Positions 6,001 to 54,040 of a stretch of DNA of 64,000 nt are shown here, piece by piece. The first letter of the stretch is position 1. The number at the start of each line of letters is the position of its first letter. A program made the translations under genes and the position numbers. Source of the stretch: Balanoglossus misakiensis (Eukaryota; Animalia; Hemichordata); contig CM082584.2 in assembly GCA_040954595.2 (NCBI GenBank), positions 1,643,344 to 1,707,343 of the forward strand, written 5' to 3'. The notes below the pieces were generated by a model. It searched no databases. It was not told the origin of the DNA and saw only the letters and a list, made by a program, of their open reading frames with translations.

Positions 6001-9000
6001 ACCCATGATTTTTTTTCAAAAATTTACGAAATTTTGAGATTTTGCAAAGTCGAAAATTTATCATTTTTTGATGATTTTCACCCAGGATTTTTTTTCACAA
6101 ATCGACGAAATTTTGAGATTTTGCAGTTGTAAATTTGTCATTTTTTAATGATTTTCCTCCATGAATTTTTTTCAAAAATCGACGAAATTTTGAGATTTTG
6201 CAAAGTCGAAAATTTGTCATTTTTTGATGATTTTCACCCATGATTTTTTTTCAAAAATCGACGAAATTTTGAGATTTTGCAAGGTCGAAAATTTGTCATT
6301 TTTTGATGATTTTCACCCAGGATTTTTTTTCACAAATCGACGAAATTTTGAGATTTATTTGTCATTTTTTGATGATTTTCAACCATTATTTTTTTTCAAA
6401 AATCGACGAAATTTTGAGATTTTGCAAAGTCGAAAATTTGTCACTTTTTGATGATTTTCACCTATGATTTTTTTCAAAAATCGACGAAATGTTGAGATTT
6501 TGCGAAGTCGAAAATTTGTCATTTTTTGATGATTTTCACCCATGATTTTTTTCAAAAATCGACGAAATTTTGAGATTTTGCAAAGTCGAAAATTTGTCAT
6601 TTTTTGATGATTTTCACCCAGGATTTTTTTTCACAAATGGACGAAATTTTGAGATTTTGCAGTCGTAAATTTGTCATTTTTTAATGATTTTCCTCCATGA
6701 TTTTTTTTCAAAAATGGACGAAATTTTGAGATTTTGCAAAGTCGAAAATTTGTCATTTTTTGATGATTTTCCCCCATGATTTTTTTCAAAAATCGACGAA
6801 ATTTTGAGATTTTGCAAAGTCGAAAATTTGTCATTTTTTGATGATTTTCACCCATGTTTTTTTTAAAAAAATCGACGAACCTATGATTTTTTTCAAAATC
6901 GGCGAAATTGTGTGATTTTGCAAACTCGAAAATTTTGTCATTTTTTGATGATTTTCAACAATAATTTTTTTTCAAAAATCGACGAAATTTTGAGATTTTG
7001 CAAAGTCGAAAATTTTGTCATTTTTTGATGATTTTCACCCATGATTTTTTCAAAAATTGATGAAATTTTGAGATTTTGCAAAGTCGAAAATTTGTCATTT
7101 TTTGATGATTTTCACCCATGATTTTTTTCGAAAATCGACGAAATGTTGAGTTTTTGCAAAGTCGAAAATTTGTCATTTTTTGATGATTTTCATCCATGAT
7201 TTTTTTTTAAAAATCGACGAAATTTTGAGATTTTGCAAAGTCGAAAATTTGTCATTTTTTGATGATTTTCACCAATGTTGTTTTTAAAAAATCGACGAAC
7301 CCATGATTTTTTTCAAAATCGACGAAATTTTGAGATTTTGCAAAGTCGAAAATTTGTCATTTTTTGATGATTCTCAACCATTATTTTTTTTCAAAAATCG
7401 ACGAAATTTTGAGATTTTGCAAAGTCGAAAATTTGTCATTTTTTGATGATTTTCACCCATGATTTTTTTCAAAAATCGACGAAATTTTGAGATTTCGCAA
7501 AGTCGAAAATTTGTCATTTTTTGATGATTTTCACCCATGATTTTTTTCGAAAATCGACGAAATGTTGAGTTTTTGCAAAGTCGAAAATTTGTCATTTTTT
7601 GATGATTTTCATCCATGATTTTTTTTTAAAAATCGACGAAATTTTGAGATTTTGCAAAGTCGAAAATTTGTCATTTTTTGATGATTTTCACCAATGTTGT
7701 TTTTAAAAAATCGACGAACCCATGATTTTTTTCAAAATCGACGAAATTTTGAGGTTTTGCAAAGTCGAAAATTTATCATTTTTTGATGATTTTCACCCAG
7801 GATTTTTTTTCACAAATCGACGAAATTTTGAGATTTTGCAGTTGTAAATTTGTCATTTTTCAATGATTTTCCTCCATGATTTTTTTTCAAAAATCGACGA
7901 AATTTTGAGATTTTGCAAAGTCGAAAATTTGTCATTTTTTGATGATTTTCACCCATGATTTTTTTCAAAAATCGACGAAATTTTGAGATTTTGCAAGGTC
8001 GAAAATTTGTCATTTTTTGATGATTTTCACCCAGGATTTTTTTTCACAAATCGACGAAATTTTGAGATTTATTTGTCATTTTTTGATGATTTTCAACCAT
8101 TATTTTTTTTCAAAAATCGACGAAATTTTGAGATTTTGCAAAGTCGAAAATTTGTCACTTTTTGATGATTTTCACCTATGATTTTTTTCAAAAATCGACG
8201 AAATGTTGAGATTTTGCGAAGTCGAAAATTTGTCATTTTTTGATGATTTTCACCCATGATTTTTTTAAAAAATCGACGAAATTTTGAGATTTTGCAAAGT
8301 CGAAAATTTGTCATTTTTTGATGATTTTCACCCAGGATTTTTTTCAAAAATCGACGAAATTTTGAGATTTTGCAAAGTCGAAAATTTGTCATTTTTTGAT
8401 GATTTTCACCCATGTTTTTTTTAAAAAAATCGACGAACCTATGATTTTTTTCAAAATCGGCGAAATTGTGTGATTTTGCAAACTCGAAAATTTTGTCATT
8501 TTTTGATGATTTTCAACAATAATTTTTTTTCAAAAATCGACGAAATTTTGAGATTTTGCAAAGTCGAAAATTTTGTCATTTTTTGATGATTTTCACCCAT
8601 GATTTTTTCAAAAATTGATGAAATTTTGAGATTTTGCAAAGTCGAAAATTTGTCATTTTTTGATGATTTTCACCCATGATTTTTTTCGAAAATCGACGAA
8701 ATGTTGAGTTTTTGCAAAGTCGAAAATTTGTCATTTTTTGATGATTTTCAACCATGATTTTTTTTTTAAAATCGACGAAATTTTGAGATTTTGCAAAGTC
8801 GAAAATTTGTCATTTTTTGATGATTTTCACCAATGTTGTTTTTAAAAAATCGACGAACCCATGATTTTTTTCAAAATCGACGAAATTTTGAGATTTTGCA
8901 AAGTCGAAAATTTGTCATTTTTTGATGATTTTCAACCATTATTTTTTTTCAAAAATCGACGAAATTTTGAGATTTTGCAAAGTCGAAAATTTGTCATTTT

Positions 9001-20437: not shown

Positions 20438-21921
20438 CATAGGTACTTGACTCAGAGTAAACAAGATTGTGTAATTGATACATGTCAGAACGAGATAGAG
20501 ATATCACGCGCTAAGTTCATGTTTAAGAAATATTAAGATGACGTGTTCTTTTTATGACATAATACTTGACTAACGTATTAATAAGAGGTGGTGAAATTTG
20601 ATATCACATTATTATCACCGGAGATCCGTGACGGGAGTCAACGAGCATGGATAGAGTCGTGTAATTCTTACGTGTGACCAGTAATAAACCAGAACTATTT
20701 GTGTTACTCGGAAAACTTGTTGAAAGTCTCGTTATGCCTCTCGTTAAGTTTACGATATGCCGGGTACCTCTCTCTGACTCTATGAATATGTTGGGTGGAG
20801 AAGGAGAGGGAGAGAATTTACACTCTCACCCTTCGGACGTGGCTGATTCCCCAAAGAAGCCCCGATGAGGTAAACGTCCGAAGGATGGCGGGCGTAACAA
20901 AACTACAGTGTTCGCAACATGACCTCAGGTCCGCCGCAGGTTTTGCATGTTACAGCAGAAAAAATCTCCGTCAGACCACTAAAAGTAATACCTTTAGGAC
21001 ATAAATTATTTATCTTGAAAGATATTGCTGTATGCAAAGATTGTCGGCCAGTCAACATCACCAACGATATTAACAATATAAAATAAATAAAATTTCAACG
21101 ATTCAACTTCTTTTCTAGCTTCCTATCTGGATAGTTTGTTTTATTTTACTCTAAAGATCGCCTTTCTTCCAGGCCACGTGGCAAGAGACGTTTTCAACTT
21201 CTACTATGATCGATGCGAGAGTACTATAGTATTCTCATATACACAGACAAAGGCCACCAAAATAAGAGAATCATTTGGTCAAATGGTAGAGGGCGCAAAA
21301 ACAGATATTTCAAATGACAAAATTTTCCGATAAACGTGTTTAATCAAATCAAACTGTGCTCAATGGTATGCTTGCAAAATTGAATACAAATGAAACAAAA
21401 CACAGCAACTGCCATGAACAAGAAGTTTATTCATGTCAAAATTCAATTTTTTTGAATCATTGATTTCAATTATTAGCTGAAAACTAAAATTAGATTGTCA
21501 TCTTGAACAGTATAAAATCAGCGAGCCATTAGACATTAAGTACCCAGCATACTAAAATAAAACCATGTAAACATGCACAATTAGATAATCAAATAATTTT
21601 TATTTATTCACCATGATGTTTTTAATGTATGTCAAGTCAAAGTACTTGAAGTTATGGACGATCAATTAAAATAGAAAACTGTAATTTTAATGGTTGGGTA
21701 ATGTATCCAATTTCTGCCCAATATATGAAATTTCCGAGTTAGCAACTGAAGAATTCGTGGGGAAAATAGTTACGTGATGTGTAACAGAATTCACTTGGAA
21801 GTAAGGAGTTTTTGTAAAATCAACATGCATATTACAATTTATTTGTAAAAACTTGATTGGCAATGGAAAATTGGCGTTTAAATATATAGTACTTCAAGAT
21901 GAACAGATAAAGTATAAGTTA

Positions 21922-21958
21922 CACTACGGGCCAGACCCACTGTAGTTTGAGCAGTATT
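21922..21958 (+). repeat. Left TIR (bipartite)
   Basis: cactacgggccagac-N11-tgagcagtatt matches the reverse complement of the right end, cactgcggcccaaac-N11-tgggcagtatt, at 12/15 and 10/11 positions. Confidence 0.88.
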
Positions 21959-22005
21959 CCGCGAAGCGCGATTGCCGCCATCACCGTAGCAACGCTTTTT
22001 CCAAG

Positions 22006-22659
22006 ATGGCGGCGGCCGTGTTGGTTGATACGGAGAAAATCATACAGCGCAAATTACGAGCTGCTAAGTCATTAATTCTGCGTCGAAAATGTATGTTGGA
22101 TGTTATACATGTACATTCCCTGTTTGATGAATTGTCCGATTCAGCCAAAAGGGTTCTACTGAGGAACGACAAGATTACAAAAGACAAAATTCGTTATCGA
22201 GATGTTGCGGTATTCCCTATTTTCCAACGTGAAATGGGTCACTGGCTGCGTTGTTTCCACGCACGCCTGTCAGCCTCACCTTCGTTGAGATCGCCTTGGA
22301 AAAGCGGCTTTTCTAGACAAATGCCCAAGGAAGTGTTTGCTGTATTTCATCATGACGCCACTCGGAATAGTTTTGGGATCCATGAGAAGACGTCCAAGGC
22401 CATCGTAACCTTGACCTTTACCAACCTATTGAAGCTGACTTACGTCCTGCGGAGAGGTTGCTGTGATGACAGAAATCTCGGACCGGAAGATAAGGAGAAT
22501 GTGCTGGCGAGAGTGGTCAAAGGAAAGCGAGTGGCTGTCATATGCACAGAAACAAAGCCGTGTATTGTCAAATACTACATGAACAGGGAATCTGTTGTGG
22601 TCAACTTTTGCTTTGGAGCCTGGAACAAACACAGCATTCCAATGCACTCAGAGAACTAG
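22006..22659 (+). CDS. Transposon accessory protein of unknown function, 217 aa, intronless
   Basis: Uninterrupted ORF with higher GC than its surroundings and a strong start context (caagATGGcgg). AATAAA follows at ~22769. It lies inside the TIRs and converges on the transposase gene. Confidence 0.75.
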   Translation: MAAAVLVDTEKIIQRKLRAAKSLILRRKCMLDVIHVHSLFDELSDSAKRVLLRNDKITKDKIRYRDVAVFPIFQREMGHWLRCFHARLSASPSLRSPWKSGFSRQMPKEVFAVFHHDATRNSFGIHEKTSKAIVTLTFTNLLKLTYVLRRGCCDDRNLGPEDKENVLARVVKGKRVAVICTETKPCIVKYYMNRESVVVNFCFGAWNKHSIPMHSEN

Positions 22660-23421
22660 AACATCAGTAACATTGCAAGTCTAATGCAAAATTGGCCTTC
22701 TGTCCAATACTCTTGACACTTCAGTCAATATATACAGTTTGTCGGTGTTGTGTTCTCATTAATTAAGAAATAAAAACAGTAGATTGAAAATGAAGTAGTA
22801 TTGTCTTTATTCAATTCCAACAATCAACATTACATGCAATACAGCAGAAGTACAAGGAATTGTCATGAATTTCATTATAAATTGCATTTAACTTTCTTAG
22901 CATTCAATAAATATAAAATCATTCAATTTGATATATACAATTCATGGGATTTGAAAGTTAACTTATTGTGATTTTAACTAAATTAAATTAATGTATTCTG
23001 ATTATCGTTAATTACTTAGCAAGGAAATCTTATAATTATATTCAATATTATTGTAATATGATAGACTTAAGACACAAACGTTTCAAATCTATTCATTTAG
23101 ACTGTAATAGAATATCACATTAACCCTGCATTTAAGGTTTGTGTTAGTACAGATAACATGCAGTTGTATCAGAATCATGACATGTTTATGTACACTGTGA
23201 GAATACTGAAGTTCATGATGTTGCATATATACCGTTTAGTTACAATGGCCTGACATGCATCTGTTGTAACAGTTGTGAACACAGAAGTGTGGCAGAGTTT
23301 ATTTCCAGTTTAATACATGTTAATAATATCATTCATTTCAATTTGACATTCACAACATTTCAACACGGTAAGTTAAAAACACTGAAACAGGAAACATTTT
23401 GCACAGAAGGGCAAAAACACT

Positions 23422-26350
23422 TCACAGAACAATTTTCTTCAGTTTATTACTCAGCTTGCCAGACACTGCTGCTTGTTTTATTTCAGCAATAACTGGGTCA
23501 TTACAAATTTTACATGTAGACACTGCTTCATCTTTCATGTTACCACACATACAGTAACCTGCACTGTCATAGTACAGACTGGGTATATATTTTTCTCTTT
23601 CTTTAAGTTCATACTGAACTAGATTGGCCCGCCTATATTTGTCTGCTTTTGGATTTCTTTCTCTTAGCCAAAAGAGCATTGTGTATTCATGGCGGAATAT
23701 GAGGGTCCACCTGTTCTGAGGAGTGGAATTCTTACTCAATTCAAGAAGACGAAGATGTTTTGCTTCTCGACCTTCCATAGTATTCAACCCCAAACCAAGT
23801 TTGAATTGCTGATACACACTTGCTGCATGTTTAGGTACTGCGTATCCAATATGCCAAACAGTATTATTTACATCAAAAAATAGTGAATGGAGGTTAAAGT
23901 ACCATGTACATTTCTGTTTCAGGACAAGTAAATCCCCTTCACTCAGATTAAACCTTGAAAAGAGCAAGGTAATATCCCTCAGCAACAACCCAAGATATGT
24001 GAAAAGAGCCAATCGAGCTCGCCGCTTTACACTATCTTTATCACCCATGGGTGTCTTAATCAGTGACATGAATTTCCATGCTAGTTTACGGGACTCTTCC
24101 CCAGTAAAGCGATAAACAGCACTTATTTGAGAAAGTGATTTTGCATTGTTTTCACTAAAGAACTTTCAAATTTTGTTGTACAGTTTTCCAGCTCTCACTT
24201 GGTATTTTAATGCAGACAGGAATTTGTATAGACAAGACTCCTTTGGGAGATTTTCAATCTTAACTCCCTTATCAAAATCTGTTTGTGAAGTGTGAGCAAC
24301 TGCATCTATCAACAGCATCTGGAAATAGTACTGCCATGCATTGTTTTTCATGTGCAATGGTTCAACTTTAGCACAGTCGATAAATCGACCAAGAGGGGGT
24401 ACAAATTCCTGTCTGGATTTTCTACTGGCTATAAATTTAGTGACTTTTGGCCGCACAGTTTTTGGCTTGCCATCTCTATTCTTTGGTTGCGATTTGAATT
24501 TCTCCACAGCTTCAACATCTTTAATGCGTTTGTCATATGACCATTCTTGCCATTTTTTACCTGGACCAATATCTGCTCCAATACAATCTCTATCTGACTT
24601 TGAAACATTAGCAAAAGAGCTTAAGTACTGTGCAGCATTGGAAAGCTCTCCAGGCATTGAAGCTAAACCTTTCTGATCAAAAGGCAAGAGCGAAACTTGG
24701 AAAGTCACACAAAGATTGCCAACATTGTATTTACGTTTCTGGATACAATTCAGTTCTTTTGATAATGAATGTGCATAGTCAATCATAATCGGATCATCTT
24801 CTTTGAGATTTGCCCCCAACAGTAGAAAATTATCATCTGGGCTTGCAACACGATGTCCAACATTCAAACAACTGACCAACCAGGCAGTAGCTTGGCCATG
24901 TTTTCCAAATGGTGCACCATCAGCACCTATACTAATCTGGAAGTTACCTTCTTGTCTATCAAACCAGTTAAGAATGTCTGGCTGGGTTGATTTCATTTGT
25001 AAATACAGATTGGCAATCTTAACAAGTAACTCTTCAATGTTACGTTTCAAACCTACCTGTTTCCCTTCTGCTGTCAGAATGGGTTCAAGAGTACAAATAT
25101 CAAGATTACTAACATAGCGTACAACTTTGTTGTATGTCAGTAATCTTGGTATTCTGCAGCCAAAGTGAAACTGCATTGCCCTACTTGGATTTTGTATTTT
25201 AGATGATGTTTGCAGTTCACTCAGCCTCAGACAAGTGTATTTGCGTTTTGATAGCACTCCACCCTCATACAGAACTCTGACACTCCTTATTAAATTGCTT
25301 TCACTTTTTTCAAATTGATCAATAGATTTGTCTACTATCGATGGCATTAATTTCTCTCTGATTTGAGGTGATGTTTTCAAATAGGTTTCAATCTGTTCAG
25401 GTTTGGCAGAGTTGATGAGGGTAAACCACAAACCATCAAGTGCAGCTTTTGAAGGTTTCAATCTGGTAAAATTACCTACACCATTGGCTAAACTGGTATC
25501 GGTTGTTGATACATGAATAGATGTGGCGGCTGACAAGGTTTTACATCTACGTTCATACTGTTCACGCCGTGATATTGTCAAAACCTCACTGTTATCTTTA
25601 CACACTTCTGAGTTCTTGTGAATCCACCTGGGTTGCAAAGCATCTAGTTTTCTCTGCAAGATTACACAAAAAAATGTACATGAAGAGGTTAGTGGATTTA
25701 TCAGCCTAAATTTTGAGCATTTCATTGTGATTATAGGAGCAAGCTAGTAATCCCAAGGACTTCAAAATATGCATGATAAAAACAGACGATGTTCCCCTAA
25801 CATTAGCTAACTGTGCATATGATTGAATTCTATTTGAGTAAAACTGACAAATTAAATTTATTCAATCGTTTAAACTCACTGTACCTTTATACTGTAGGTC
25901 CTAGCACCTAACTCCTGTCTCACATTATTATTCCTCTGCTCAAGTCTAGAAAGACGGGTTTTAGCCCGTTTTACTAGTCTTTTAGCAGCACTGATCTTAT
26001 TAAGGTTATCCTCGATTATGCTACTCTCCTGATCCCTCTTTCTCTTCCGCTGTCTAGACCACTCCCCCAAGTTAAACCGATATTTTGGCTGGCATTCTTC
26101 TGTCCTCTATAGCAAGGCATTAGTCTGCACTCTTTCTAGCAATGACCTAGTCTTTGAATTTTCTCTTAATAGCTCCTGTGAATGCTTTTCCTTTGCAATT
26201 TCTCTGGCTAGCTTCTGTTCCTTTGCCCACTGACCTATGTTGAAGTATGTTGTTTTCTTTCCTACTTGGCATGTTGATGGATAAACTTTGCAGGGGTGCC
26301 CTACATCTAAGTAACAGTTTACTCCACCACATACCTGAGCTGTTTCTGAT
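23422..26350 (-). pseudogene. RAG1/Transib-like DDE transposase, ~900 aa when reconstructed. Probable exons 26350-~25885 and 25653-23422, possible first exon 27209-27164.
   Basis: Motifs are collinear with the RAG1 core: LSKRKY, IGADG (D1, 24919-21), VASPDDNFLL, PFDQK (D2, 24676-78), EPLH, YRFTGEESRKL, TMEGREAKH (E, 23764-66). In-frame stops at 26107-09 and 24166-68 join ORFs in the same frame. Polypyrimidine-CAG acceptors lie at 26351 and 25654. Confidence 0.85.
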
Positions 26351-27255
26351 CTGAAGAGGAAAATTACAATGAATAAGAATGTATAATAATTAATAATTAT
26401 GCATGTATATTTATAGTACATTAGTGACTTTAGTATTTTTCAACCGATACCCAACAGCAATGCAAAGAAAATCACTGAAAGACATTTGATAAAACCTGCT
26501 CTGAGCTAGGCATATCGACCACAGCTCTCCATACATACCAACGTGTATACGCAGAGATGGGCATATTTCAATGGGAGAATTGGAGTGAATATAACTGTAC
26601 TGCGCAGACACAGGTTCAAAATTTTCTGTTTTGATTTTTAACTTTGCATTTATAGTGTAATGCATTAAGTACGTAATTTAGCTAAAACTATTGGTTCTCG
26701 ATTTTAAAATTTAATCCATTCCAACTCAGACTTTTGCTAACAAAACCACACGCAGTGACAGCTGAGACGTGTCGCCATTGCAGTACATGTAAACACAGCC
26801 GGAGGCGTACGACATGCTGAGGTATCGAGAATCGCTTGGTGTAATTTCGTTAAACCTGTGGTAGCAGTTGTTCAAATATAACATCCGTGAAATAACCATA
26901 GTTAGGTAAACTCGTATGGTTTTGAAATGTCAGATAACAGGTTAGCAAGGCTAAATCGTTGAATTTTCCACCCTGTGTAAGTGGTTGCTGAGGGCAGTGC
27001 TGTCGTTAGCAACAGCACACCCGCGCGGTAAATCAGTTATTTTTAAAGTTATTTCAGTGATTCAATATGAAATGTACAGATGAAATAATATTTTTGTTTC
27101 GTTTACTGTGAACACTATTATGTATGGTGCAGTAGATCGTAAAAAATGACAAGAAACACTTACCGAATTTCACTGTATTCAGGTTTCAGCTCCGCTGAGC
27201 GACCGCCATGATCGCGCTAATTAATTATTCATGAGCTATTGAAACGCGCCACAGA

Positions 27256-27292
27256 AATACTGCCCAGAGAGGGCGGCGTTTGGGCCGCAGTG
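27256..27292 (-). repeat. Right TIR (bipartite)
   Basis: The minus strand reads cactgcggcccaaac-gccgccctctc-tgggcagtatt. The second TTA follows at 27293-27295. Confidence 0.88.
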
Positions 27293-28420
27293 TTATTACA
27301 GATGTCATTTTACGACAACAAGGAATGGTAAATCGTTCTTTAATATCTTTAAAGATGCCAGGTCAAAGGTCACCTTTGCAAATTCAACCACTGGTACCAT
27401 AGCCATTTCAAATGTAGCCAAAAGTGCGCCACCACTTTCTTCAAACATACTGAAACCATCTACAGGTTACCGTAGTCCTATATCTCTTGGCATCCATGGC
27501 AGTTTAGCTAGTCATGAGCTGGCAAGGGGTGACCTGTAAGCTTTAAACTCTGGCTTCGGTAATGTCGACTCTGGCTCTGGCATATACTTGCAGGTCCTTA
27601 TGACCTTGGGGTGAACATGGTCATGAAGAAATAAATAGAATCTGTTTGGTGCATTGTCAACTTCATTTTATAGTTTCAAAAAAATACAATATGATGAGTA
27701 ATATTGTTGTTGTTTTCAAAGAGACTCACCACACACTTTAGTAAATCAATGACTTGAAAAAGTTTTGAGGACTATCATTTGTCTGAATCTCGGACCGCGA
27801 GGCACATACTACCTTAAATAGTTTCACTCGCAGCTTCTTGTGGGCAGTTTCTCCTTGGGTACCTGTACAGACACACCAGGAGGCCGTTCCCGATGAACAA
27901 CTCAACCCACATGAAAACATTCAAGCGTCTGGTCACACCCATTTCCGTCAAACAAGAACATGAATGAAACTGCGGAGGAAGAGAACGGGAGAGTGCCCAT
28001 TAACCCTGTAATGACCAATCATTTACTGGAACAAGGTTCAGGATGTACGATCACTGGAGTTGAAAATAAGGTCATGGATTTGAAAATTATTCTGAGTTAT
28101 GAAATTGAAAATACTTATTTTTCATTGTGGATTCTCCGACATAAATATTATCAAAAACAATAAGGGTTGTCTTTTTAATTTATGACATATAACGCCATGA
28201 ATCTAGCCCATTAATACAAAGGCAATACTAAAACACATTTCGGGTTAGCGTTATGACAACTTGAAGAAAGTATGAATACAAACTTTCTAAAGTAATATTT
28301 TAAAGGTTGGCGTATTGATTACAGCTTGTTTGTTCTGCTATTAATGGAAATTCGGTTAGAGCCGTTTGAGGCAACTCTTATTCTGTCAAAGTTATGGCGT
28401 TAACTTATTCTGTCAAAGTT

Positions 28421-32034: not shown

Positions 32035-35000
32035 GACTAGTTCACCATGACCAACCACATGACCCAGGAAATCGATCTGCTCATAACCCACATAACACTT
32101 AGTTGGTCTCGCTGTTAACTTTGCCTTTCGTAGTCTGCTCATCAAATCTGTAATTGTCTTGATATGTTCTTCCCATGATGCAGTGTGGATCAGTATATGA
32201 TCGATATAGTTGTCTCAATCTTCATATCTCTTAACAATCTTCTCATAATTCTGCTAAAAGTCGCAGCACTATTTACAAGTCCGAAATGCATTTTGATAAA
32301 TTGGTATAGCCCATCATGCGTGATAAATGCCGTCAATTGTTTAGAATTATCAGTCAACGGGACTTGCCAATATTCTTTGCTGAGATCTACTTTAGTGAAA
32401 TAGTGATCCTTGGATAACTTAGCAAAAAGCAAAAAGCTCACTCAGGTCTGGTGTAGGCTCTGCATCAAACACTGTTATGCGATTGAGCTTTCTCATGTCA
32501 ACACAACAATGATTGGACCCATCAGATTTCTTCACCATTACCAGTGGAACAGCATATGGACTCTCTGAAGGTTCAGCTACTCCCATCTTAATCATCGTTT
32601 TGACTTCATCTTTCACTGCTTCACGGAGTGCATGAGGGATGGGGTATGGCCTACTGCATACTGGTGTTGGATCCATCAACTTGATGTCATGGAAACCCAG
32701 GTTGGTGTTACCACGAATATCAGTTAACATATCTTTGTAATTGATCAGCAACCTCCTCACCACTTGCTTCTGTATGTCTGACAAGTTGTCACATACATTC
32801 ACATCTGCAGCAAATTCTTTCTGCTTGAATGCAGGAACCCGCAGTAAGTCATCGTTTACTTTAACCCCTGTGTTCTCTTGTACTTCTGAAGATTCATAAC
32901 TCTGCTCATCTATCACAGATACACACACAATCTCAAGAAGTCCAGCTGATACTTATTCTAGCTGATCAGTTCTTCGATAGTACCTCTTCAACAGGTTGGC
33001 ATGGAATGTTTTCACCCTATGACCAAAGTCAATCTTGTAATCCATATTGCTCGCTTTCTCCACCACTGGAAAAGGACCCTTCCAGTGCATAAGTAGTTTA
33101 TTATGGTCAGTAGGTAGTAGCAATAACACCTCGTCACCTTTGTTGAACTTCCTCCATTTGGCCTTTCTATTGTAGTAGGACTTGTATTTGCCTTGTGATA
33201 TCTTCAGTTCTTGTCTTGCTAAATCGCATGCCTTCTTTAATTTCTTTTGAAGATCAAGGATGTATTGATAAGTCGTTTTGGTTTCTGGTTCACTGATCTC
33301 TCCAGTCCATAGTTCTTTCAAGATAGCCATTGGACCACGCACACTCCTCCCATAAAGTAACTCAAACGGAGAGAATCCTGTGCTCGATTGAGGCGTTTCT
33401 CTGTAGGCAAATAGTAAAGCATTCAGATAACGATCCCAATATGTTGGACGTTCCTCACACATCTTCCTGAGCATGAGTTTCAATGTACCATTGAACCGTT
33501 CCACTAGACCATTGAATGCTGGGTGGTATGGGGTGGTAGTCATCTGCTTTATAGACAAAAGCCGGCTGACCTCACGCATCACATCTGATGTAAATTGAGT
33601 TCCTTGATCTGTCAGAATTCACGTGGACACCCCACTCTTGAGTAGATGTCCAGGAGCGCCTCTGCAACAGTCTTGGTATCAATGTTAGTCAATGCAACAG
33701 CCTCCGGATAGCGTGTTGCATAATCAACAACAGTAAGTATGTACCTATTCTTGCGTTCAGTGCATGGATGAATAGGGCCAACCAGGTCTACTGCAATACG
33801 TAGGAAAGGGATATCTATTAGTGGCATACTTCCAAGTGGTACCTTGGTCACCCGTCCCTTTGGTTGTGTCCGTTGACATGAATCACAGGACTGACAGTAA
33901 CGGGAAACATCTGATGTTAGCCCAGGCCAAACGAAGTTGCTGAGGATCTTGTCTGTGGTCTTGTGAGTTCCGTGGTGACCACGCAGCACTGATTCATGGG
34001 CTAGTCTCATCACCTGGTTACGATACACTCTGGGAACCACCACCTGTAACAGCTTTTCACGAAATTGGACCATTGGCGAATTGAACTCTCTGTACAGGAT
34101 CCCATCTTTCATGATGAACTTCAACCTACCTCCATTCCTAGTCACTTTCTCGTCACCCAAAATTGCCTTCTCACGTAGTTTGTCAAGAGTGGAGTCTTCT
34201 TCTTGAGCTTGTTGAAGCTTCCCTGGCATCACCACTTCACCAACAGCTTTAGGTACTTTAAGCTCTCTGATTGGTTTTTGGTTGGCTATCTTCTGGGCTC
34301 TGGTCTCCACAGCATATGCTAAACCTGGTACCTGTCCAACAGTTGTACACAGTCTACATGTCGGCAATGGTTCCTGCCATGTAGTATCAGGATTCGAAGG
34401 GTCAGATACACCATCAATGTTGCCCAGTATTAAATCATACACAGGGTTCATCATGCACAGTGCAGTAACATCACCAACAAAGTAAGGGGTATCAACTTTT
34501 ATTGAGGCTACAGGTACTCTTCTAATAGTCCGATCTATCAGAACACACGTCCTGTACTCACCAGTCAGCTGACTACTTGACACCAGACTTCTTCGAACTA
34601 CCACGCTACTACACCCACTATCACGCAAAACGCTAACCAGCTTACCATCGACCAATCCCTTCATTACCGGCATCTTCTTCACTCCATGGGCACTACAAGC
34701 AGCACTCATCACTGGGAGCTTATGACCACATGGTAACACGAACTCCTTATTCAGTGTTGCATCTGTTTTATCTATTTCCATTGCTACCACCATACATGCA
34801 TAACCAGTGTCTAGTCCCCTGGGCTGTTGACGGTTGCCCCAATGTGTACATTCTTGTTTAGGTGGATAGTTTCTATCTTCTTCAGTTAACAATACCGCCG
34901 TGTTATGCATCTTTGGCTTACTTCTACAATCTTTGGCCATATGACCACCTTTACCACATACGAAGCACGTACCTTTAAAAACATGGGAACCATTGGTTTT

Positions 35001-35856
35001 GTTATTAAACTTCTTTACTTGATTTGGATATACAGCAGGCTTGGTATTTGCTGTCGGCTGGCTCCTTGGATTATTCTTGGCATTACTTGGCAGTTTCCAC
35101 CACCCTCGGGCATCTAAGTATTTTGAGGCAGTAGATACCATCTCTTGGACATTCTCTGGCCGTCGCTCTCTAATGAACATTGCCATGTCTCTGGAACATA
35201 CTCCAATAAACTGCTCTCGAAGTAACAGATCTGTAAGCCCATTGTACGTCTTTGGAGTACCAGCCAGTTCTACCCATCTGCCCAAATAGTCACCAATACG
35301 GTCCATAAACTTTTGAGCACTTTCATCATAATGTGGCATACACGAACGGAACTTGTCATGAAAACTCTCCTCACTTAACTGGTAAGCCCTCAATAACTCT
35401 GGTTTCAATTCATCATAATTATTTGCAGACGCTGCAGGCATTTGGTTGTATGTGGATACATCCTTACCTTGTAACAATATGCACTGAGATTCACCCCCAG
35501 TCATCTTTTTCCCACTTCTGAGCAGTGGCGTAGCGCTGAAAACGTTGAAGGTACGCATCCATATCATCAACATCCTCACGAAAACCCTGTAGTCTCGGAG
35601 CACGCGCTTTGGCCAAATTATTTTCAGTAACCTGCTGTTCTGTATTTTCCCCTTTCAATTTTAATTCTTGTAAGTGAAGTTGCATTTTCAGTATCTCTCT
35701 CTCATGTTCCTCGCGCCGCCTATTATCTTCTCTCTGCTCCTCTCTCTCAGTAGCCCTAAGATCCCTCTGTCTAATTTGTTCCTCTCTAACATAATCTTTT
35801 AAAGCAGTCCCTTCCAACCCAAATTTTTCTCCCTATCTTATATATTCTTTCTGCAT
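32035..35856 (-). pseudogene. Disrupted gag-pol: SCAN-like capsid region, CCHC knuckle, aspartic protease, integrase, reverse transcriptase
   Basis: Motifs LLREQF, CFVCGKGGHMAKDC, LRDSGCS, HHCC, IAVDLVGP, DQGTQF, NGLVERFNGTLK, WKGPF, KVDLSKEYWQV and FGLVNSAATF. YxDD is mutated to YIDH. Several frameshifts (~35490, ~33615, ~32440, ~32215) and stops are present. Confidence 0.93.
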
Positions 35857-36156: not shown

Positions 36157-37728
36157 TGTCAGAGGTGGAGGGCACCCCTCTGATTCCAGGATAAATATTG
36201 AGCTGCTCTCAGTGCCAAGGAGTAAACATCCGTGGATAAGGTATGGGGAGAAACTACACAAACCAGTGCGGATACAATAATACAGTTGATTTAATTTAAA
36301 TCAATTAAATAATATAAAGATAATACTAGGAATATAATTTTTGTGCACAATATGCACAATATCAAATGTCTCTGTCCTAACCAATTTAGCAGGTACAGGT
36401 ATGCTGATACAATTGGTCATACAATACAATGGGTTACTTAATATATTACATAAATGAATATATTCACAATATCACTATAGTTTATTGTCTATTGCATATT
36501 GTCTAAACAATGGTAAGTGTCACTTAGCTGTATATAACATTCATAGTAAACAATCATGATTCAACCACAATATGGGATGGAGTCCTGTATAGATGAACGA
36601 TGTAGCGACGATCCACATTACACATACAATCTGTGATACACCATGTTTTCTACCACTTGTAGTCCTCCAGTAGTCAAGTAAACACACTGAAGACTGACTT
36701 GTTAGATGCAAGTCTTGGGTTAAATGGCTGAATGAAAAATCAACAAACATTGACTGAAATGTCCACCTTAGCAACTGTTCACAAATGAATACTGACGTTT
36801 CTCAATAATAATTATCAGAAATTTGGACTAGTTAAAGCGTCATGATTACATGTGATATCATGGAAAATTATGCTTTAACTATGACCGTCCTATTACTTAC
36901 AAATTGTCGAATTTGACATAAATATCCATAAAAAATAAATTTAAGTTATAGTAAATAAATAAACAAATACATTACTTACACGAGAATTCTTCACCACACT
37001 TCATACTCAGCAATACCGGGTCTATAGGATGGTTCCACAGAACTCTGCTTGGAGCAATTTCCAGCCACACCACATACGACCATGCCAGCCACGCCAATCG
37101 CCCGACCACACCGGTTTGCACTGAATAAGCACAATTCTGCTTTCTAGAAGTACTGAATTTACTTCCACTCGAATTGCAGAAACAGTGGTCCTGAGAGCAC
37201 TAATGCGCGCTACAGCATTACATGGACACAGCAAGGTATGGTGCAATATTTCCCCTAGTATTTCTACTCACTGAGCAGGGAGACCCGACTTGTTGCTCCC
37301 TTCAAGACCTAAATTGAAGTGTGCTCTCTTACTACACGAAACTTAGCTAACGAAGCCCTATTCATTAACATGACAATACACGGTGTCACTACACCTGAAA
37401 TTATGCGGGCACCTGGGTTTCCACTGACTCCAGTACTACCTAATTATATGACAAGTTGGGACCGACAGTCGAGACCCATACAGCATTACAATCAACAAAT
37501 AGTAAACAAAATAAAAAAGTAAACAAAAAACAGGAAAACATTTTAAAAATACAAATAAAATTATGAAACTACTAAAAAAACAAAACAAAAACAAAAACAA
37601 CACAAAAACACAAAACAACAAGCGAGGTCAATAAAGATTAACGCTTACAAAGATAGAAAAAGTAAGACTGTTGTGATTATTGCTGGAATAGGCAATGTTT
37701 TAATCTACCTGCAAATACTGGTGTGACA
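36157..37728 (-). repeat. Putative 5' LTR (~1.57 kb)
   Basis: Bounded by TGTCA...TGACA. The inner edge abuts the PBS, and the outer edge coincides with the start of homology to repeat copy A. There is no second LTR to confirm it. Confidence 0.72.
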
Positions 37729-39634
37729 AAGATTTTCGGCCAGTCAACATCACCAACGATATTAACAATATAAAAATAAATAAAATTTCAACGATTCAAT
37801 TTCTTTTCTAGCTTCCTATCTGGATAGTTTGTTTTATTTTACTCTAAAGATCACCTTTCTTCTAGGCCACGTGGCAAGAGACGTTTTCAACTTCTACTAT
37901 CATCGATGCGAGAGTACTATAGTATTCTCATATACACGGACAAAGGCCACCAAAATAAGAGAATCATTTGGTCAAATGGTAGAGGGCGCAAAAACAGATA
38001 TTTCAAATGACAAAATTTTCCGATAAACGTGTTTAATCAAATCAAACTGTGCTCAATGGTATTCTTGCAAAAATTGAATACACATGAAACAAAATACAGC
38101 AACTGCCTTGAACAACAAGTTTATTCATGACAAAATTCAATTTTTTTAATCAGTGATTTCCATTATCAGCTGAAAACTAAAATTAGATTGTCATCTTGAA
38201 CAGTATAAAATCAGCGAGCAATTAGACATTAAGTACCCAGCATACTAAAATAAAACCATGTAAACATGCACAATTAGATAATCAAAGATTTTTTATTTAT
38301 TCACCATGATGTTTTTAATTTATGTCAAATCAAAGTACTTGAAGTTATGGAAGATCAATTAAAATAGAAAACTGTAATTTTAATGGCTCGGTAATGTATC
38401 CAATTTCTGCCCAATATATGAAATTTTCGAGTCAGCAACTGAAGAATTCGTGGGGAAAATATTTACGTGATGTGTAACAGAATTCACTTTGAAGTAAGGA
38501 GTTTTTGTAAAATCAACATGCATATTACAATTTATTTGTAAAAATTGATTGGCAATGGAAAATTGGCGTTTAAATATAGTACTTCAAGATGAACAGATAA
38601 AATATAAGTTATTACAGATGTCATTTTACGACAACAAGGAATGTTCAATCGTTCTTTAATATCTTTAATGATGCCAGGTCAAAGGTCACCTTTGCAAATT
38701 CAACCACTGGTACCATAGCCATTTCAAATGTAGCCAAAAGTGCGCCACCACTTTCTTCAAACATACTGAAACCATCTACAGGTTACTGTAGTCCTATATC
38801 TCTTGGCATCCATGGCAGTTTAGCTAGACATGAGCTGGCAAGGGGTGACCTGCAAGCTTTGAACTCTGGCTTCGGTAATGTCGACTCTGGCTCTGGCATA
38901 TACTTGCAGGTCCATATGACCTTGGGGTGAACATGGTCATGAAGAAATAAATAGAATCTGTTTGGTACATTGTCAACTTCATTTTAAACTTTCAAAAAAA
39001 TAACAATATGGTGAGTAATGTTTTTGTTGTTTTCAAAGAGACTCACCATACACTTTAGTAAATCAAAGACTTGAAAAAGTTTTGAGGACTATCATTTGTC
39101 TGAATCTCGGACCGCGAGGCACATACTACCTTAAATAGTTTCACTCGCAGCTTCTTGTGGGCAGTTTCTCCTTGCGTACCTGTACAGACACACCAGGAGA
39201 CCGATCCCGATGAACAACGACACCCACATGAAAACATTCAAGCGTCTGGTCACACCCATTTCCGTCAAACAAGAACATGAATGAAACTGCGGAGGAAGAG
39301 AACGGGAGAGTGCCCATTAACCCTGTAATGGCCAATCATTTACTGGCACAAGGTTCAGGATGTACGATCACTGGAGTTGAAAATAAGGTCATGGATTTGA
39401 AAATCATTTTGAGTTATGAAATTGAAATACATATTTTTCATTGTGGATTCTCCGACATAAATATTATCAAAATCAATAAGGGTTGGCTTTTTAATTTATG
39501 ACATATAACGCCATGAATCTAGCCCATTAATAAAAAAGGCAATACTTAAACACATTTCGGGGTAGCGTTATGACAACTTGAAGAAAGTATGAATACAAAC
39601 TTTCTAAAGTAATATTTTAAAGGTTGGCGTATTG
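37729..39634 (+). repeat. Copy B of the ~1.9-kb repeat, carrying the empty transposon target (TTA, 38609-38611)
   Basis: Collinear with 21037-21921 plus 27296-28317, without the insert. Confidence 0.95.
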
Positions 39635-39636
39635 CT

Positions 39637-40166
39637 TAGCATAATCATTTTTCCGTTTGCTGTGACATTTGTCTCCCTGTGAGAGTTTAAGTAAATGTAG
39701 AGTCACGCAAATTAGGCAACATCAATATCCCATACGTAATTCAGTGTGTTTTGTTCGCATTTTTGGTTTTCATTTTGAAAATGAACAAAGGACTTTCCTA
39801 TCATTGACCAACACTCGTATGAATACATCCAAATTACCCAACTTTAATTTTCCTTAAAGAATTGGTCAGCTCTGCGAATATATTTCACCTGACCACTTCC
39901 TTTGCTAAGGAAGAGTGTTGTTTATGTAATAATATTTTTATAATATTTATAACTTATGTAGCACATTAAATATCAACGTGCTTTAAGTTGTCCCATGGTC
40001 ATTTGAGCTAGGATGTTGGACCTAAATATTCCATTCAACTCCCTGGGGAGCAAACAACATCTCACCATCATTAGAAATGCCAAATTACAGTGCTTTTGGC
40101 CACGTATTAACCTGGGGATTTACAGTTAACTTTAAATACACACGCATATGCATTTAATCCCCATGT
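39637..40166 (+). repeat. ~530-bp repeat also found at ~43770-44290 (partly again at 40511-40760), ending in a satellite-2 monomer fragment
   Basis: Shared tcatttttccgtttgctgtgacatttgtctccctgtgagag... through ...ttacagtgcttttggccac. Confidence 0.88.
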
Positions 40167-44189: not shown

Positions 44190-47100
44190 CCATCATTAGC
44201 AATGTCAAATTACAGTGCTTTTGGCCACATATCAACCTGGGGATTTACAGACAACTTAAAATCCCCCTCAGCAGGCATTTAATCCCCATGTCAAAGTGCA
44301 GAGCTTGCATCACCATCTACCCCTTACAGTACTTATGGCCATGTATTAACCTAGGGATTTACAGTCAACATTAAATACTCATGCATATATTAACCTGGGA
44401 ATTTACATTCAACATTAAATACCCATGCACATGCATTAAATATGTATGCCAAAGCGCAGAGCTTGGATCACCATCTACACTGATGCATCATTAGGCTTGC
44501 TACGCCATTTCCCCTAATGCAAAGAATCACATTCAATGTCACCATTGTATTAGCTATGTCAAATTTCAGTGCTTTTGGACTTGTATTAACCCAGGGATTT
44601 TCAGTCAACTTTTAATCCCCATATGCATTTAATACCCATGTCAAAGTGAAGTGTTTGCATCACTATCTACCGGGATGCATCATCAAGCTTGCATCGCCAT
44701 TTACCCTGATGCAAAGAATCAGATTCAGTGTCACCATTTCATTAGCAATGTAAAATAAAATTGCTTTTTGCCAAGTATTAACCTGGGGATTTACAGACAA
44801 CTTTAAATACCCATGTATATACATTTAGTACCTATATCAAAATGCTTAGCTTGCATCACCATCTACTCAGATGGATCATTAGGCTTGCTACGCCATTTCC
44901 CATAATGCAAAGAATCAGATTCAATGTCACCCTTACATTAGCAATTTTAAACTACAGTGCTTTTGGAGATGTATTAACCTGGGAATTTACATTCAACATT
45001 AAATACCCAAGCACATGCATTAAATACCTATGTCAAAATGCATAGCTTGCATCACCGTCTACTCCATTGCATCATTAAGCTTGCTTTGCCATTTGCCCTA
45101 ATGCGGAGAATTACATTCAATGTCAACATCGCATTAGCAATGTCAAATTACAGTGCTTTTGGACGCGTATTAATCCAGGGATTTGTAATCAACTTGAAAT
45201 CCCCATATGCATTTAATGCCCATGTCAAAGTGAAGTGTTTGCATCACTATCTACCATGATGCATCATCAAGCTTGCATCGCCATTTACCCTGATGCAAAG
45301 AATCGGATTCAATGTCATCGTTGCATTAGCAATGTCAAATAAAATTGCTTTTGGCCACGTATTAACCTAGGGATTTACAATCAATTTTAAATCCCCATAT
45401 GCATTATATTCCAAGTCAATGTGAAGGGCTTGAAAAACCATCTACGCTGATGCATCTTCAAGCTTGCTTCACCATTTACCCATATTCAATGTAACCTTTG
45501 CATTAGTAATTTTAAATTACAGCGCTTTTAGCCATGTATTAACCTCGGGATTTAGAGTCAACTGTAAATATCAATGCGTATGCATTAAATACCCATGTCA
45601 TAGTGCAGTGTTTCCATCACTGTTGACCCTAATACATCATCAAGCATGCTTCACAATATGCCCTGATGCAAAGAATCAGATTCAGTGTCACCATTTCATT
45701 AGCAATGTCAAATTATAGAGCTTATGGCCATGTATTAACCTGGGGATTTACAGACAACTTTAAATACCCATGTATATACATTTAGTACCTATGTCAAAAT
45801 GCTTAGCTTGCATCACCATCTACTCAGATGGATCATTAGGCTTGCTAGGCCATTTCCCATAATGCAAAGAATCAGATTCAATGTCACCCTTACATTAGCA
45901 ATTTTAAATTACAGTGCTTTTGGAGATGTATTAACCTGGGAATTTACATTCAACATTAAATACCCATGCACATGCATTAAATACCTATGTCAAAATGCAT
46001 AGCTTGCATCACCGTCTACTCCATTGCATCATTAAGCTTGCTTTGCCATTTGCCCTAATGCGGAGAATTACATTCAATGTTAACATCGCATTAGCAATGT
46101 CAAATTACAGTGCTTTTGGACGCGTATTAACCCAGGGATTTGTAATCAACTTGAAATCCCCATATGCATTTAATGCCCATGTCAAAGTGAAGTGTTTGCA
46201 TCACCATCTACCGTGATGCATCATCAAGCTTGCATCGCCATTTACCCTGATACAAAGAATCGGATTCAATGTCATCGTTGCATTAGCAATGTCAAATAAA
46301 ATTGCTTTTGGCCACGTATTAACCTAGGGATTTACAATCAATTTTAAATCCCCATATGCATTATATTCCAATGTCAATGTGAAGGGCTTGAAACACCATC
46401 TACCCTGATGCATCTTCAAGCTTGCTTCACCATTTACCCATATTCAATGTAACCTTTGCATTAGTAATTTTAAATTACAGTGCTTTTAGCCATGTATTAA
46501 CCTCGGGATTAAGAGTCAACTGTAAATATCAATGCGTATGCATTAAATACCCATGTCATAGTGCAGTGTTTCCATCACTATTGACCCTAATGCATCATCA
46601 AGCATGTTTCACAATATGCCCTGATGCAAAGAATCACATTCAATGTCACCATTGCATTAGAAATTTTAAATTACAGTGCTTTTGGCCATGTATTAACCTA
46701 GGGATTTACAATCAATTTTAAATCCCCATATGCATTATATTCCAATGTCAATGTGAAGGGCTTGAAACACCAGCTACCCTGATGCATCTTCAATCTTGCT
46801 TCACCATTTACCCATATTCAATGTAACCTTTGCATTAGTAATTTTAAATTACAGCGCTTTTAGCCATGTATAAACCTCGGGATTTAGAGTCAACTGTAAA
46901 TATCAATGCGTATGCATTAAATACCCATGTCATAGTGCAGTGTTTCCATCACTATTGACCCTAATGCATCATCAAGCATGCTTCACAATATGCCCTGATG
47001 CAAAGAATCAGATTCAGTGTCACCATTTCATTAGCAATGTCAAATTATAGTGTTTATGGCCATGTATTCACCTGAGGATTTATAGTCAACATTAAATACA

Positions 47101-50100
47101 CATGCATATGCATTAAATACCTATGTCAAAGTGCAGAGCTTGCATCACCATCTACTCTGATGCACTATTAGGATTGCTACGCCAGTTCCCCTAATGCAAA
47201 TAATCACATTCAATGTCACCATTGCATTAGCAATTTTAAATTACAGTGCTTTTGGCAATGTATTAACCTGGGTATTTACAATTAACTTTAAATCCCCATA
47301 TGCGTTATATTCCAATGTCAATGTGAGGGGCTTAAAACACCATCTATCCTGATGCATCATCAAGCTTGCTTCACAATTTACCCTAATGCAAAGAATCAGA
47401 TTTAGTGTCACGGTAGCATTAGCAATGTCAAATTACAGTGCTTTTGGCCACGTATTAACCTGGGGATTTACAGTCAACATTAAATACCCATGCATATGCA
47501 TTAAATACTTATGTCAAAGTGCATAGCTTGCATCACCATATACTCTGATGCATCATTAAGCTTGCTTCGCAATTTGCCCTGATGCAAAGAATCACATTCA
47601 ATGTCACCATTGTATTAGCTATGTCAAATTTCAGTGCTTTTGGACCTGTATTAATCCAGGGATTTTCAGTTAACTTTTAATCCCCATATGCATTTAATAC
47701 CCATGTCACAGTGAAGTGTTTACATCACTATCTACCGGGATGCATCATCAAGCTTGCATCGCCATTTACCCTGATGCAAAGAATCAGATTCAGTGTCACC
47801 ATTTCATTAGCAATGTCAAATAAAATTGCTTTTTGCCAAGTATTAACCTGGGGATTTACAGACAACTTTAAATACCCATGTATATACATTTAGTACCTAT
47901 ATCAAAATGCTTAGCTTGCATCACCATCTACTCAGATGGATCATTAGGCTTGCTACGCCATTTCCCATAATGCAAAGAATCAGATTTAATGTCACCCTTA
48001 CATTAGCAATTTTAAATTACAGTGCTTTTGGTGATGTATTAACCTGGGAATTTACATTCAACATTAAATACCCATGCACATGCATTAAATACCTATGTCA
48101 AAATGCATAGCTTGCATCACCGTCTACTCCATTGCATCATTAAGCTTGCTTTGCCATTTGCCCTAATGTGGAGAATTACATTCAATGTCAACATCGCATT
48201 AGCAATGTCAAATTATAGTGCTTTTGGACGCGTATTAACCCAGGGATTTGTAATCAACTTGAAATCCCCATATGCATTTAATGCCCATGTCAAAGTGAAG
48301 TGTTTGCATCACTATCTACCGTGATGCATCATCAAGCTTGCATCGTCATTTACCCTGATACAAAGAATCGGATTCAATGTCATCGTTGCATTATCAATGT
48401 CAAATAAAATTGCTTTTGGCCACGTATTAACCTAGGGATTTACAATCAATTTTAAATCCCCATATGCATTATATTCCAATGTCAATGTGAAGGTCTTGAA
48501 ACACCATCTACCCTGATGCATCTTCAAGCTTGCTTCACCATTTACCCATATTCAATGTAACCTTTGCATTAGTAATTTTAAATTACAGTGCTTTTAGCCA
48601 TGTATTAACCTCGGGATTAAGAGTCAACTGTAAATATCAATGCGTATGCATTAAATACCCATGTCATAGTGCAGTGTTTCCATCACTATTGACCCTAATG
48701 CATCATCAAGCATGCTTCACAATATGCCCTGATGCAAAGAATCACATTCAATGTCACCATTGCATTAGCAATTTTAAATTACAGTGCTTTTGGCCATGTA
48801 TTAACCTAGGGATTTACAATCAATTTTAAATCCCCATATGCATTATATTCCAATGTCAATGTGAAGGGCTTGAAACACCAGCTACCCTGATGCATCTTCA
48901 AGCTTGCTTCACCATTTACCCATATTCAATATAACCTTTGCATTAGTAATTTTAAATTACAGCGCTTTTAGCCATGTATTAACCTCGGGATTTAGAGTCA
49001 ACTGTAAATATCAATGTGTATGCATTAAATACCCATGTCATAGTGCAGTGTTTCCATCACTATTGACCCTAATACATCATCAAGCATGCTTCACAATATG
49101 CCCTGATGCAAAGAATCAGATTCAGTGTCACCATTTCATTAGCAATGTCAAATTATAGTGCTTATGGCCATGTATTAACCTGGGGATTTACAGACAACTT
49201 TAAATACCCATGTATATACATTTAGTACCTGTGTCAAAATGCTTAGCTTGCATCACCATCTACTCAGATGGATCATTAGGCTTGCTACGCCATTTCCCCT
49301 AATGCAAAGAATCAGATTCAATGTCACCCTTACATTAGCAATTTTAAATTACAGTGCTTTTGGAGATGTATTAACCTGAGAATTTACATTCAACATTAAA
49401 TACCCATGCACATGCATTAAATACCTATGTCAAAATGCATAGCTTGCATGACCGTCTACTCCATTGCATCATTAAGCTTGCTTTGCCATTTGCCCTAATG
49501 CGGAGAATTACATTCAATGTCAACATCGCATTAGCAATGTCAAATTATAGTGCTTTTGGACGCGTATTAACCCAGGGATTAGTAATCAACTTGAAATCCC
49601 CATATGCATTTAATGCCCATGTCAAAGTGAAGTGTTTGCATCACTATCTACCGTGATGCATCATCAAGCTTGCATCGCCATTTACCCTGATACAAAGAAT
49701 CGGATTCAATGTCATCGTTGCATTAGCAATGTCAAATAAAATTGCTTTTGGCCACGTATTAACCTAGGGATTTACAATCAATTTTAAATCCCCATATGCA
49801 TTATATTCCAATGTCAATGTGAAGGGCTTGAAACACCATCTACCCTGATGCATCTTCAAGCTTGCTTCACCATTTACCCATATTCAATGTAACCTTTGCA
49901 TTAGTAATTTTAAATTACAGTGCTTTTAGCCATGTATTAACCTCGGGATTAAGAGTCAACTGTAAATATCAATGCGTATGCATTAAATACCCATGTCATA
50001 GTGCAGTGTTTCCATCACTATTGACCCTAATGCATCATCAAGCATGCTTCACAATATGCCCTGATGCAAAGAATCACATTCAATGTCACTATTGCATTAG

Positions 50101-53100: not shown

Positions 53101-54040
53101 CATTAGGCTTCCTACACCATTTCCCCTAATGCAAAGAATCAAATTCAATGTCACCATTGCATTAGCAATTTTAAATTACAGTGCTTTTGGCCAAGTATTA
53201 ACCTGGGGATTCACAATCAACTTTCAATCCCCATATGCGTTATATTCCAATGTCAATGTGAAGGGCTTGAAACACCATCTATCATGATGCATCATCAAGC
53301 TTGCTTCACAATTTACCCTGATGCAAAGAATCAGACTTAGTGTCACGGTAGCATTAGCAATGTCAAATTACAGTGCTTTTGGCCACGTATTAACCTGGGG
53401 ATTTACAGTCAACATTAAATACCCATGCATATGCATTAAATACCTATGTCAAAGTGCAGAGCTTGCATCACCATCTACTCTGATGCACCATTAGGCTTCC
53501 TACACCATTTCCCCTAATGCAAAGAATCACATTGAATGTCACCATTGCATTAGCAATTTTAAATTACAGTGCTTTTGGCCAAGTATTAACCTGGGGATTC
53601 ACAATCAACTTTCAATCCCCATATGCGTTATATTCCAATGTCAATGTGAAGGGCTTGAAACACCATCTATCACGATGCATCATCAAGCTTGCTTCACAAT
53701 TTACCCTGATGCAAAGAATCAGATTTAGTGTCACGGTAGCATTAGCAATGTCAAATTACAGTGCTTTTGGCCAAGAATTAACCTGGGGATTTACAGTCAA
53801 CATTAAATACCCATGCACATGCATTAAATACCCATGTCAAAGTGAAGTGTTTGCATCACTATCTACCGGGCTGCATCATCAAGCTTGCATCACAATTTAC
53901 CCTGATGCAAAGAATCAGATTCAATGTCATCGCTGCATTAGCAATGTCAAATAAAATTGCTTTTGGACACGTATTAACCCAGGGATTTTCAGTCAACTTT
54001 TAGTATCCCTGTATGCATTTTAAACCCCGGTGTCAAAGTT
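44190..54040 (+). repeat. Satellite 2, ~196-bp monomer (variants ~178-201 bp), with higher-order repeats
   Basis: Recurring gcattagcaatgtcaaattacagtgcttttggccacgtattaacctggggatttaca. ORF offsets are 196, 374, 957 and 1332 bp. Confidence 0.96.

Follow-up and report, generated by a model that had tools for sequence, protein, structure and literature searches.

We analysed a stretch of 64,000 nucleotides from the hemichordate Balanoglossus misakiensis (assembly GCA_040954595.2, contig CM082584.2, positions 1,643,344 to 1,707,343 of the forward strand; hereafter the window, whose numbering is used throughout), which contains a transposon with two convergent genes, one for a transposase and one for a small partner protein, ORF2 (open reading frame 2). 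The element occupies positions 21922-27292 (5,371 bp), starts with CAC and ends with GTG, and the first bases of its ends read CACTA and CACTG. Its left tip, CACTACGGGCCAGAC, and its right tip, CACTGCGGCCCAAAC (reverse complement), are identical at 12 of 15 bases, and an inner block, which spans positions 27-37 in each end, is identical at 10 of 11; the terminal inverted repeats (TIRs), at 21922-21958 on the plus strand beside ORF2 and at 27256-27292 on the minus strand beside the transposase, are thus bipartite, with a 15-bp outer block that begins at the CAC. TTA stands on either side of the insert, at 21919-21921 and 27293-27295. The flanks (21035-21921 and 27292-28321) match a paralogous segment of the same window (37727-38611 and 38608-39638) at about 96-97% identity, and at the junction this insert-free copy is shorter by one TTA, with a single TTA at 38609-38611. 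Because the empty site has one TTA less, the target-site duplication (TSD) of the window element is exactly 3 bp. The 1.9-kb duplicated segment itself (21035-28321 and 37727-39638) holds short broken reading frames and has no clear ends or family.

ORF2, at 22006-22659 on the plus strand, is intact and encodes a basic protein of 217 amino acids (pI 9.9); its start lies 84 bp from the element end, inside AAGATGGCG. The transposase is encoded by the minus strand; its main exon, at 25653-23422, specifies a predicted RAG1/Transib-type DDE core and a C-terminal CxC-x-CxxC tail. Predicted splice sites place an upstream exon for a basic N-terminal region at about 25885-26350, also on the minus strand, and the F-x-I/L-G motif of this exon recurs in the N-termini of several transposase homologs. 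The main exon carries a premature TGA at 24166-24168 and the predicted upstream exon a premature TAG at 26107-26109, and because of these two stops the window copy is probably non-autonomous. The two genes lie tail-to-tail, and opposed AATAAA hexamers between them (22769 on the plus strand and 22806 on the minus strand, together 22769-22811) likely mark the abutting 3' ends of both convergent transcripts. The original prediction, made from the window sequence, had described a 5,371-bp insert with CAC...GTG ends, a TTA duplication and two tail-to-tail genes. All three are borne out here, the duplication by the empty paralogous site of 96% identity; the interval that it gave, 21919-27295, includes both copies of the TSD.

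With the premature stop read through as X, the window transposase matches 223 proteins at E<=1e-3, the best 120 of which provide the family composition and identities given here. The closest match listed is a protein of Ptychodera flava with 80% identity, and the other matches listed have 32-44%. The named members (10 clusters) come from Ptychodera and from the anthozoans Nematostella, Actinia, Actinostola, Porites, Acropora, Dendronephthya and Paramuricea, and all are annotated as uncharacterized or hypothetical. Nematostella has four near-identical transposase proteins of 797 amino acids on contigs of unlike lengths; the family is therefore multi-copy there, and these copies suggest recent mobility. 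A Pfam scan of six window frames and 64 transposase homologs did not recognise the family: at E<=0.5 the 64 transposases gave no RAG1 match and, in a listing of 25 out of 28 families, none of the En/Spm, Plavaka or Transposase_21 type. Sequence searches of the PDB with the transposase returned nothing, and viral relatives were not found.

For the fold, the intact Ptychodera protein was modelled with AlphaFold on a 64-sequence alignment (pLDDT 92). Foldseek ranks this model nearest to RAG1, the recombinase of antibody genes (E 5.8e-12), followed by HzTransib (2.3e-7), BbRAGL (3.5e-6) and the P element (3.5e-3). VIA-align likewise places RAG1 first (Z 21.9, rmsd 3.7, 464 residues aligned), followed by BbRAG1L (20.0), HzTransib (14.4) and the P element (12.3), with the next unrelated structure at 7.1. 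Sequence identity to the RAG1, ProtoRAG and Transib structures is just 10-13%. We conclude that the core has a predicted RAG1/Transib-type fold; these rankings cannot put the family nearer to RAG than to CMC, because the lists hold no EnSpm or Chapaev structure. The element had originally been called RAG-like, and this holds for fold (Z 21.9) and layout but not for sequence, given the low identity and the lack of a Pfam RAG1 match. The D-D-E residues do not vary: all 64 transposases have D181, D262 and E566 (P0003 numbering).

A C(2)C motif is reported as common to CMC (EnSpm, Chapaev, Mirage), Transib and RAG1, and an H(3-4)H motif as common to EnSpm, Chapaev, Mirage and Transib (PMC12730594). 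None of the 64 transposases has a C(2)C within 45 amino acids of D262, and only two have one anywhere in the stretch that separates the second D from the last E, at positions that they do not share. This loss is a stronger distinguishing trait than those first proposed, and it was overlooked in the original prediction. H(3-4)H precedes the last E in 26 of the 64 (second His in 62, first His in 24) and is absent from the window protein. A four-cysteine C-terminal tail, CxC-x(7,16)-CxxC, is present in 60 of the 64, and the CX2CX3GHX4C tail of RAG1L in none. The Chapa zinc finger, reported as the N-terminal domain of Chapaev and Chapaev3 (PMC4411706, 10.64898/2026.01.24.700457), was not seen by eye in the first 150 amino acids of 29 long homologs or in the window's upstream frames, N-termini that may be incomplete. 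The CMCT clade is described by 5'-CA..TG-3' termini and a TSD of 2-5 bp (PMC12730594); the DDE core architecture, the termini and the TSD all agree with this clade here, and C(2)C is missing.

ORF2 also belongs to a family. A word-index search with ORF2 alone found no homologs; a profile search found 45 and a full HMMER scan 69. The precomputed Pfam accession PF26709 is attached to 43 of the 45 profile matches, and we found no paper naming it. The proteins are basic (median pI 9.4). An Arg-Arg helix is conserved among them, as is a G-x-W-N-x-x-G-x-P-Q-H motif in the C-terminal part; P97 and F111 alone reach 90% conservation over all rows of the alignment, and no acidic residue is near-invariant. 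The structural model, built on 92 sequences (pLDDT 92), consists of four helices at the N-terminus and a mixed alpha/beta domain, and on this model ORF2 is not a kelch propeller and not RAG2-like, in keeping with the initial claim of a partner other than RAG2. Scans of Pfam, PHROGs and PDB sequences gave nothing convincing; there was no kelch or PHD match in Pfam, and no Myb/SANT match in 16 ORF2 proteins. Structure searches of the PDB and BFVD returned no match at E<=1e-3. The VIA-align matches (Z<=7.9, residues 1-60) were rejected as generic helical hairpins. The C-terminal domain, modelled only within the whole protein, reached at most Z 4.8, with Vif, RnlA and archaeal virus proteins among its matches, a result that does not establish a new fold.

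The two genes are linked well beyond the window. Of 207 metagenome loci with transposase relatives, the 80 best were used. The window ORF2 matches 33 of these 80 by tblastn (E<=1e-3), in each case on the opposite strand and downstream of the transposase. With a profile, ORF2 is found in 31 of the 35 loci that have at least 1.5 kb of downstream sequence, and with a wider hidden Markov model (HMM) in 32 of 35; the profile behind the 31 was seeded from the same loci, and the tblastn count is independent of it. The distance can be considerable, with ORF2 as far as 2.9-4.0 kb downstream of the transposase in L068 and L081. Trees of transposase and ORF2 for 19 elements, namely the window element and 18 subfamilies obtained by collapsing at 90% identity, are congruent (Mantel rho 0.79, 0 of 2000 permutations), with the supported splits shared in 8 of 11 and 10 of 12 cases. 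Furthermore, ORF2 dN/dS lies at 0.15-0.39 in seven of the eight pairs, out of 13, for which it could be estimated. ORF2 is thus, as judged from sequence divergence, under purifying selection; together with its recurrent convergent position and the congruent trees, this indicates that it is not cargo. The explanation that ORF2 is a captured passenger without a role, or a chance neighbour of the transposase, could draw on its lack of a recognisable domain and on the three long loci without ORF2. However, its position and orientation are constant in the window and across the 18 subfamilies, whose transposases are <90% identical, and the congruent trees and dN/dS below 0.4 largely refute this explanation, which we regard as highly improbable.

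A different role for ORF2 deserves more weight. The same element could encode in ORF2 a regulator or anti-silencing factor, which would act on transposase expression or on host chromatin at the ends and would stand outside the cutting complex. The protein is small and basic, and in 10 of 12 relatives, as in the window, it begins in the motif AANATGGCG, at a distance of about 70-105 bp from the TIR, a motif that we take to be a YY1-type site. YY1 is reported to regulate ProtoRAG through its TIRs (PMC7481187). The linkage and selection data fit such a regulator equally well. Neither Pfam nor structure comparison, however, reveals a known chromatin or transcription-factor domain in ORF2, and the tight co-phylogeny fits a sequence-specific partnership without requiring one. 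We consider a regulator unlikely. A CAGCGG motif also recurs about 50-70 bp from the ORF2-side end, upstream of the AANATGGCG start, in L001, L004, L005, L024, L032, L033 and L081, and is a possible promoter or subterminal binding site.

Complete relatives with both true ends were recovered at 13 loci that are not fully independent of each other, with lengths of 4.2-8.5 kb; the relatives terminate in TIRs of the form CACGC[CT]-G. An exact 3-bp TSD flanks five of the 13 (TAG, ATT, AGC, AAT and ATA), against 0.24 expected by chance; there is one 2-bp match and no duplication of 4-8 bp. A fourteenth candidate, L008, with an apparent TTA TSD, was set aside, since the supposed left "TIR" of this locus is a repeat internal to it. 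These data agree with the expectation, set out when the element was first noted, that homologous elements would carry a convergent second reading frame between CAC TIRs with 3-bp TSDs. One subfamily has another TIR-like sequence, 845 bp inward from the end beside the transposase (L005:1513, L007:3240, L008:4552, L009:901 and L013:1759), which is possibly an older end or a nested element. The relative at L081:6241-14782 is a complete 8.5-kb element with an ATA TSD; its contig bears the label of a bacterial metagenome-assembled genome, and the element has an inverted partial copy of ORF2 at its transposase end (6826-7167). We reject a bacterial origin, since this AT-rich insert sits within a 294-bp tandem array and is likely mis-binned animal DNA; in view of this case, reports of "bacterial Transib" call for care.

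The family shares some traits with each of the closest known systems and differs in others. As in ProtoRAG/RAGL elements (TransibSU), two convergent genes lie between bipartite TIRs that start with CAC, the top structural matches of the transposase are RAG1 and BbRAG1L, the C-terminal tail is cysteine-rich, and the host ranges overlap, RAGL hosts being reported to include Ptychodera and cnidarians (PMC10629977). In contrast, the partner here is a 217-aa alpha/beta protein and that of RAGL a kelch-PHD RAG2L; the TSDs here are 3 bp and mostly AT-rich, whereas those of RAGL are 5 bp and GC-rich, a length found in none of the 13 relatives; and the transposase, at 10-13% identity and without C(2)C, has the CxC-x-CxxC tail in place of the CX2CX3GHX4C reported for RAG1L (PMC10629977). 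The element thus resembles ProtoRAG in layout but is not a RAGL element on partner, TSD and tail. Transib is a one-gene element, unlike the two-gene element described here, in which C(2)C is also absent and identity to Transib is 12-13%. Shared with Transib are the fold (HzTransib Z 14.4), the CAC ends and, for some Transib elements, namely Hayabusa and Transib-6, a 3-bp TSD (10.64898/2026.08.26.747230); the canonical Transib transposase is described as a core only (PMC4411706). EnSpm/CACTA and Chapaev/Chapaev3 (CMC) elements have the same CAC..GTG termini and 3-bp TSD, and here C(2)C, a listed Transposase_21-type Pfam match and a visible Chapa domain are all lacking. Plant CACTA elements also have an accessory protein, TnpA, but it and the transposase are produced from one strand, whereas ORF2 is a convergent gene of its own. 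In PIF/Harbinger (Nuwa) and Kolobok, too, a transposase is combined with a separate small accessory gene, and Kolobok has TTAA TSDs and different ends. Harbinger likewise makes 3-bp TSDs (PMC12730594), but the transposase here has the RAG1-type fold (Z 14-22) and not that of IS5/Harbinger, and ORF2 has no Myb/SANT match. The 3-bp TSD, put forward earlier as a mark of the element, is confirmed in length but is less diagnostic than supposed, because some Transib elements share it and the EnSpm rule is the same.

The family could already stand in Repbase or Dfam as an animal EnSpm or Chapaev3-type entry, with its two-gene anatomy alone overlooked, which would be compatible with the explanation that we favor. 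Nematostella genome transposons have been catalogued and the family is multi-copy in that genome, and ORF2 homologs already fall under PF26709. Furthermore, Repbase is reported to file CAC..GTG elements with a 3-bp TSD as EnSpm (PMC12730594), and the window element has exactly this combination. Against such an entry are the facts that all 64 transposases lack C(2)C close to the second Asp and that just 26 of them have H(3-4)H, the lack of an En/Spm or Plavaka match among the Pfam families listed, and the long N-termini inspected, which show no Chapa zinc finger. A description of the lineage was not found in the literature searched, outside whose coverage lie Repbase Reports, subscription journals and bioRxiv supplements. 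We judge prior cataloguing to be somewhat doubtful, and regard the lineage as a candidate for an undescribed one.

We favor, as the probable explanation, a cut-and-paste transposon with CAC..GTG ends and a 3-bp TSD, whose transposase has a predicted RAG1/Transib fold and whose co-inherited convergent gene is likely a transposition helper, in the role that RAG2 has for RAG transposons. By the fold match, the transposase would bind the bipartite ends and cut by the nick-hairpin route as in RAG and Transib, and strand transfer would then integrate the element with a 3-base stagger. Nick-hairpin chemistry is reported as established for RAG, ProtoRAG and HzTransib (PMC10629977). More tentatively, the basic, non-catalytic-looking ORF2 protein may act in trans with the transposase, binding DNA at the ends or target and/or docking on the transposase via its C-terminal G-x-W-N-x-x-G-x-P-Q-H, and it would represent a partner acquired independently of RAG2. 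Several observations weigh against this explanation. Without C(2)C, the cleavage chemistry may differ from that of RAG. Eight of the 13 complete relatives have no TSD; three pairs of them have one flank in common and the other different, and because they share one flank only, collapsed assemblies are pointed to as the cause of the missing TSDs. The metagenome loci are a selected set, and three of the 35 long ones have no ORF2: L060 is a truncated copy, and L030 and L073 are without an explanation. The wider HMM gave one weak upstream plus-strand ORF2 match, in the rearranged L076. One near-identical ORF2 pair has a dN/dS of 1.56, on six differences, and 5 of the 13 pairs are saturated and not estimable. 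Finally, congruent trees reflect co-inheritance on one element, not interaction.

Elsewhere in the window, positions 1-20437 hold a long AT-rich satellite of 78-79 bp with higher-order repeats and an orientation switch near 14800. Broken Gypsy-like gag-pol frames lie on the minus strand at 32419-35654 (zinc knuckle, protease, reverse transcriptase and integrase motifs by eye), and a second tandem array occupies 44200-54000; its unit measures about 195 bp, and the array is related to 40059-40166.

Taken together, the fold and the linked convergent ORF2 support the initial proposal of a transposase-plus-accessory-protein system in the RAG/Transib/CMC radiation, and the family is a real and widespread lineage of two-gene elements, probably a distinct one within the CMCT radiation: its transposase is predicted to fold like RAG1, its partner is not RAG2, its TSDs measure 3 bp and C(2)C is missing. 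A bolder hypothesis, which we hold tentatively and at rather less than even confidence, is that this is an ancient (cnidarian-to-deuterostome), recently mobile and undescribed RAG1-fold lineage that lost the zinc-binding C(2)C and independently took on a convergent subunit, obligatory and new in fold; the two-subunit design of RAG1+RAG2 would then have had a second natural origin. How a one-subunit Transib-type enzyme turned into the two-subunit RAG recombinase is still under discussion, and in the literature covered RAG2L is the sole convergent partner of a RAG1-fold transposase. If our explanation is true, an unrelated partner with the same fold and layout would imply either two origins of this design or an exchange of partners, and the lineage would offer a natural comparison for partner function. 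The definition of the CMCT clade would also widen to members without C(2)C, an unnamed protein family would gain a function, and many "uncharacterized" genes of corals and anemones would become transposon genes.

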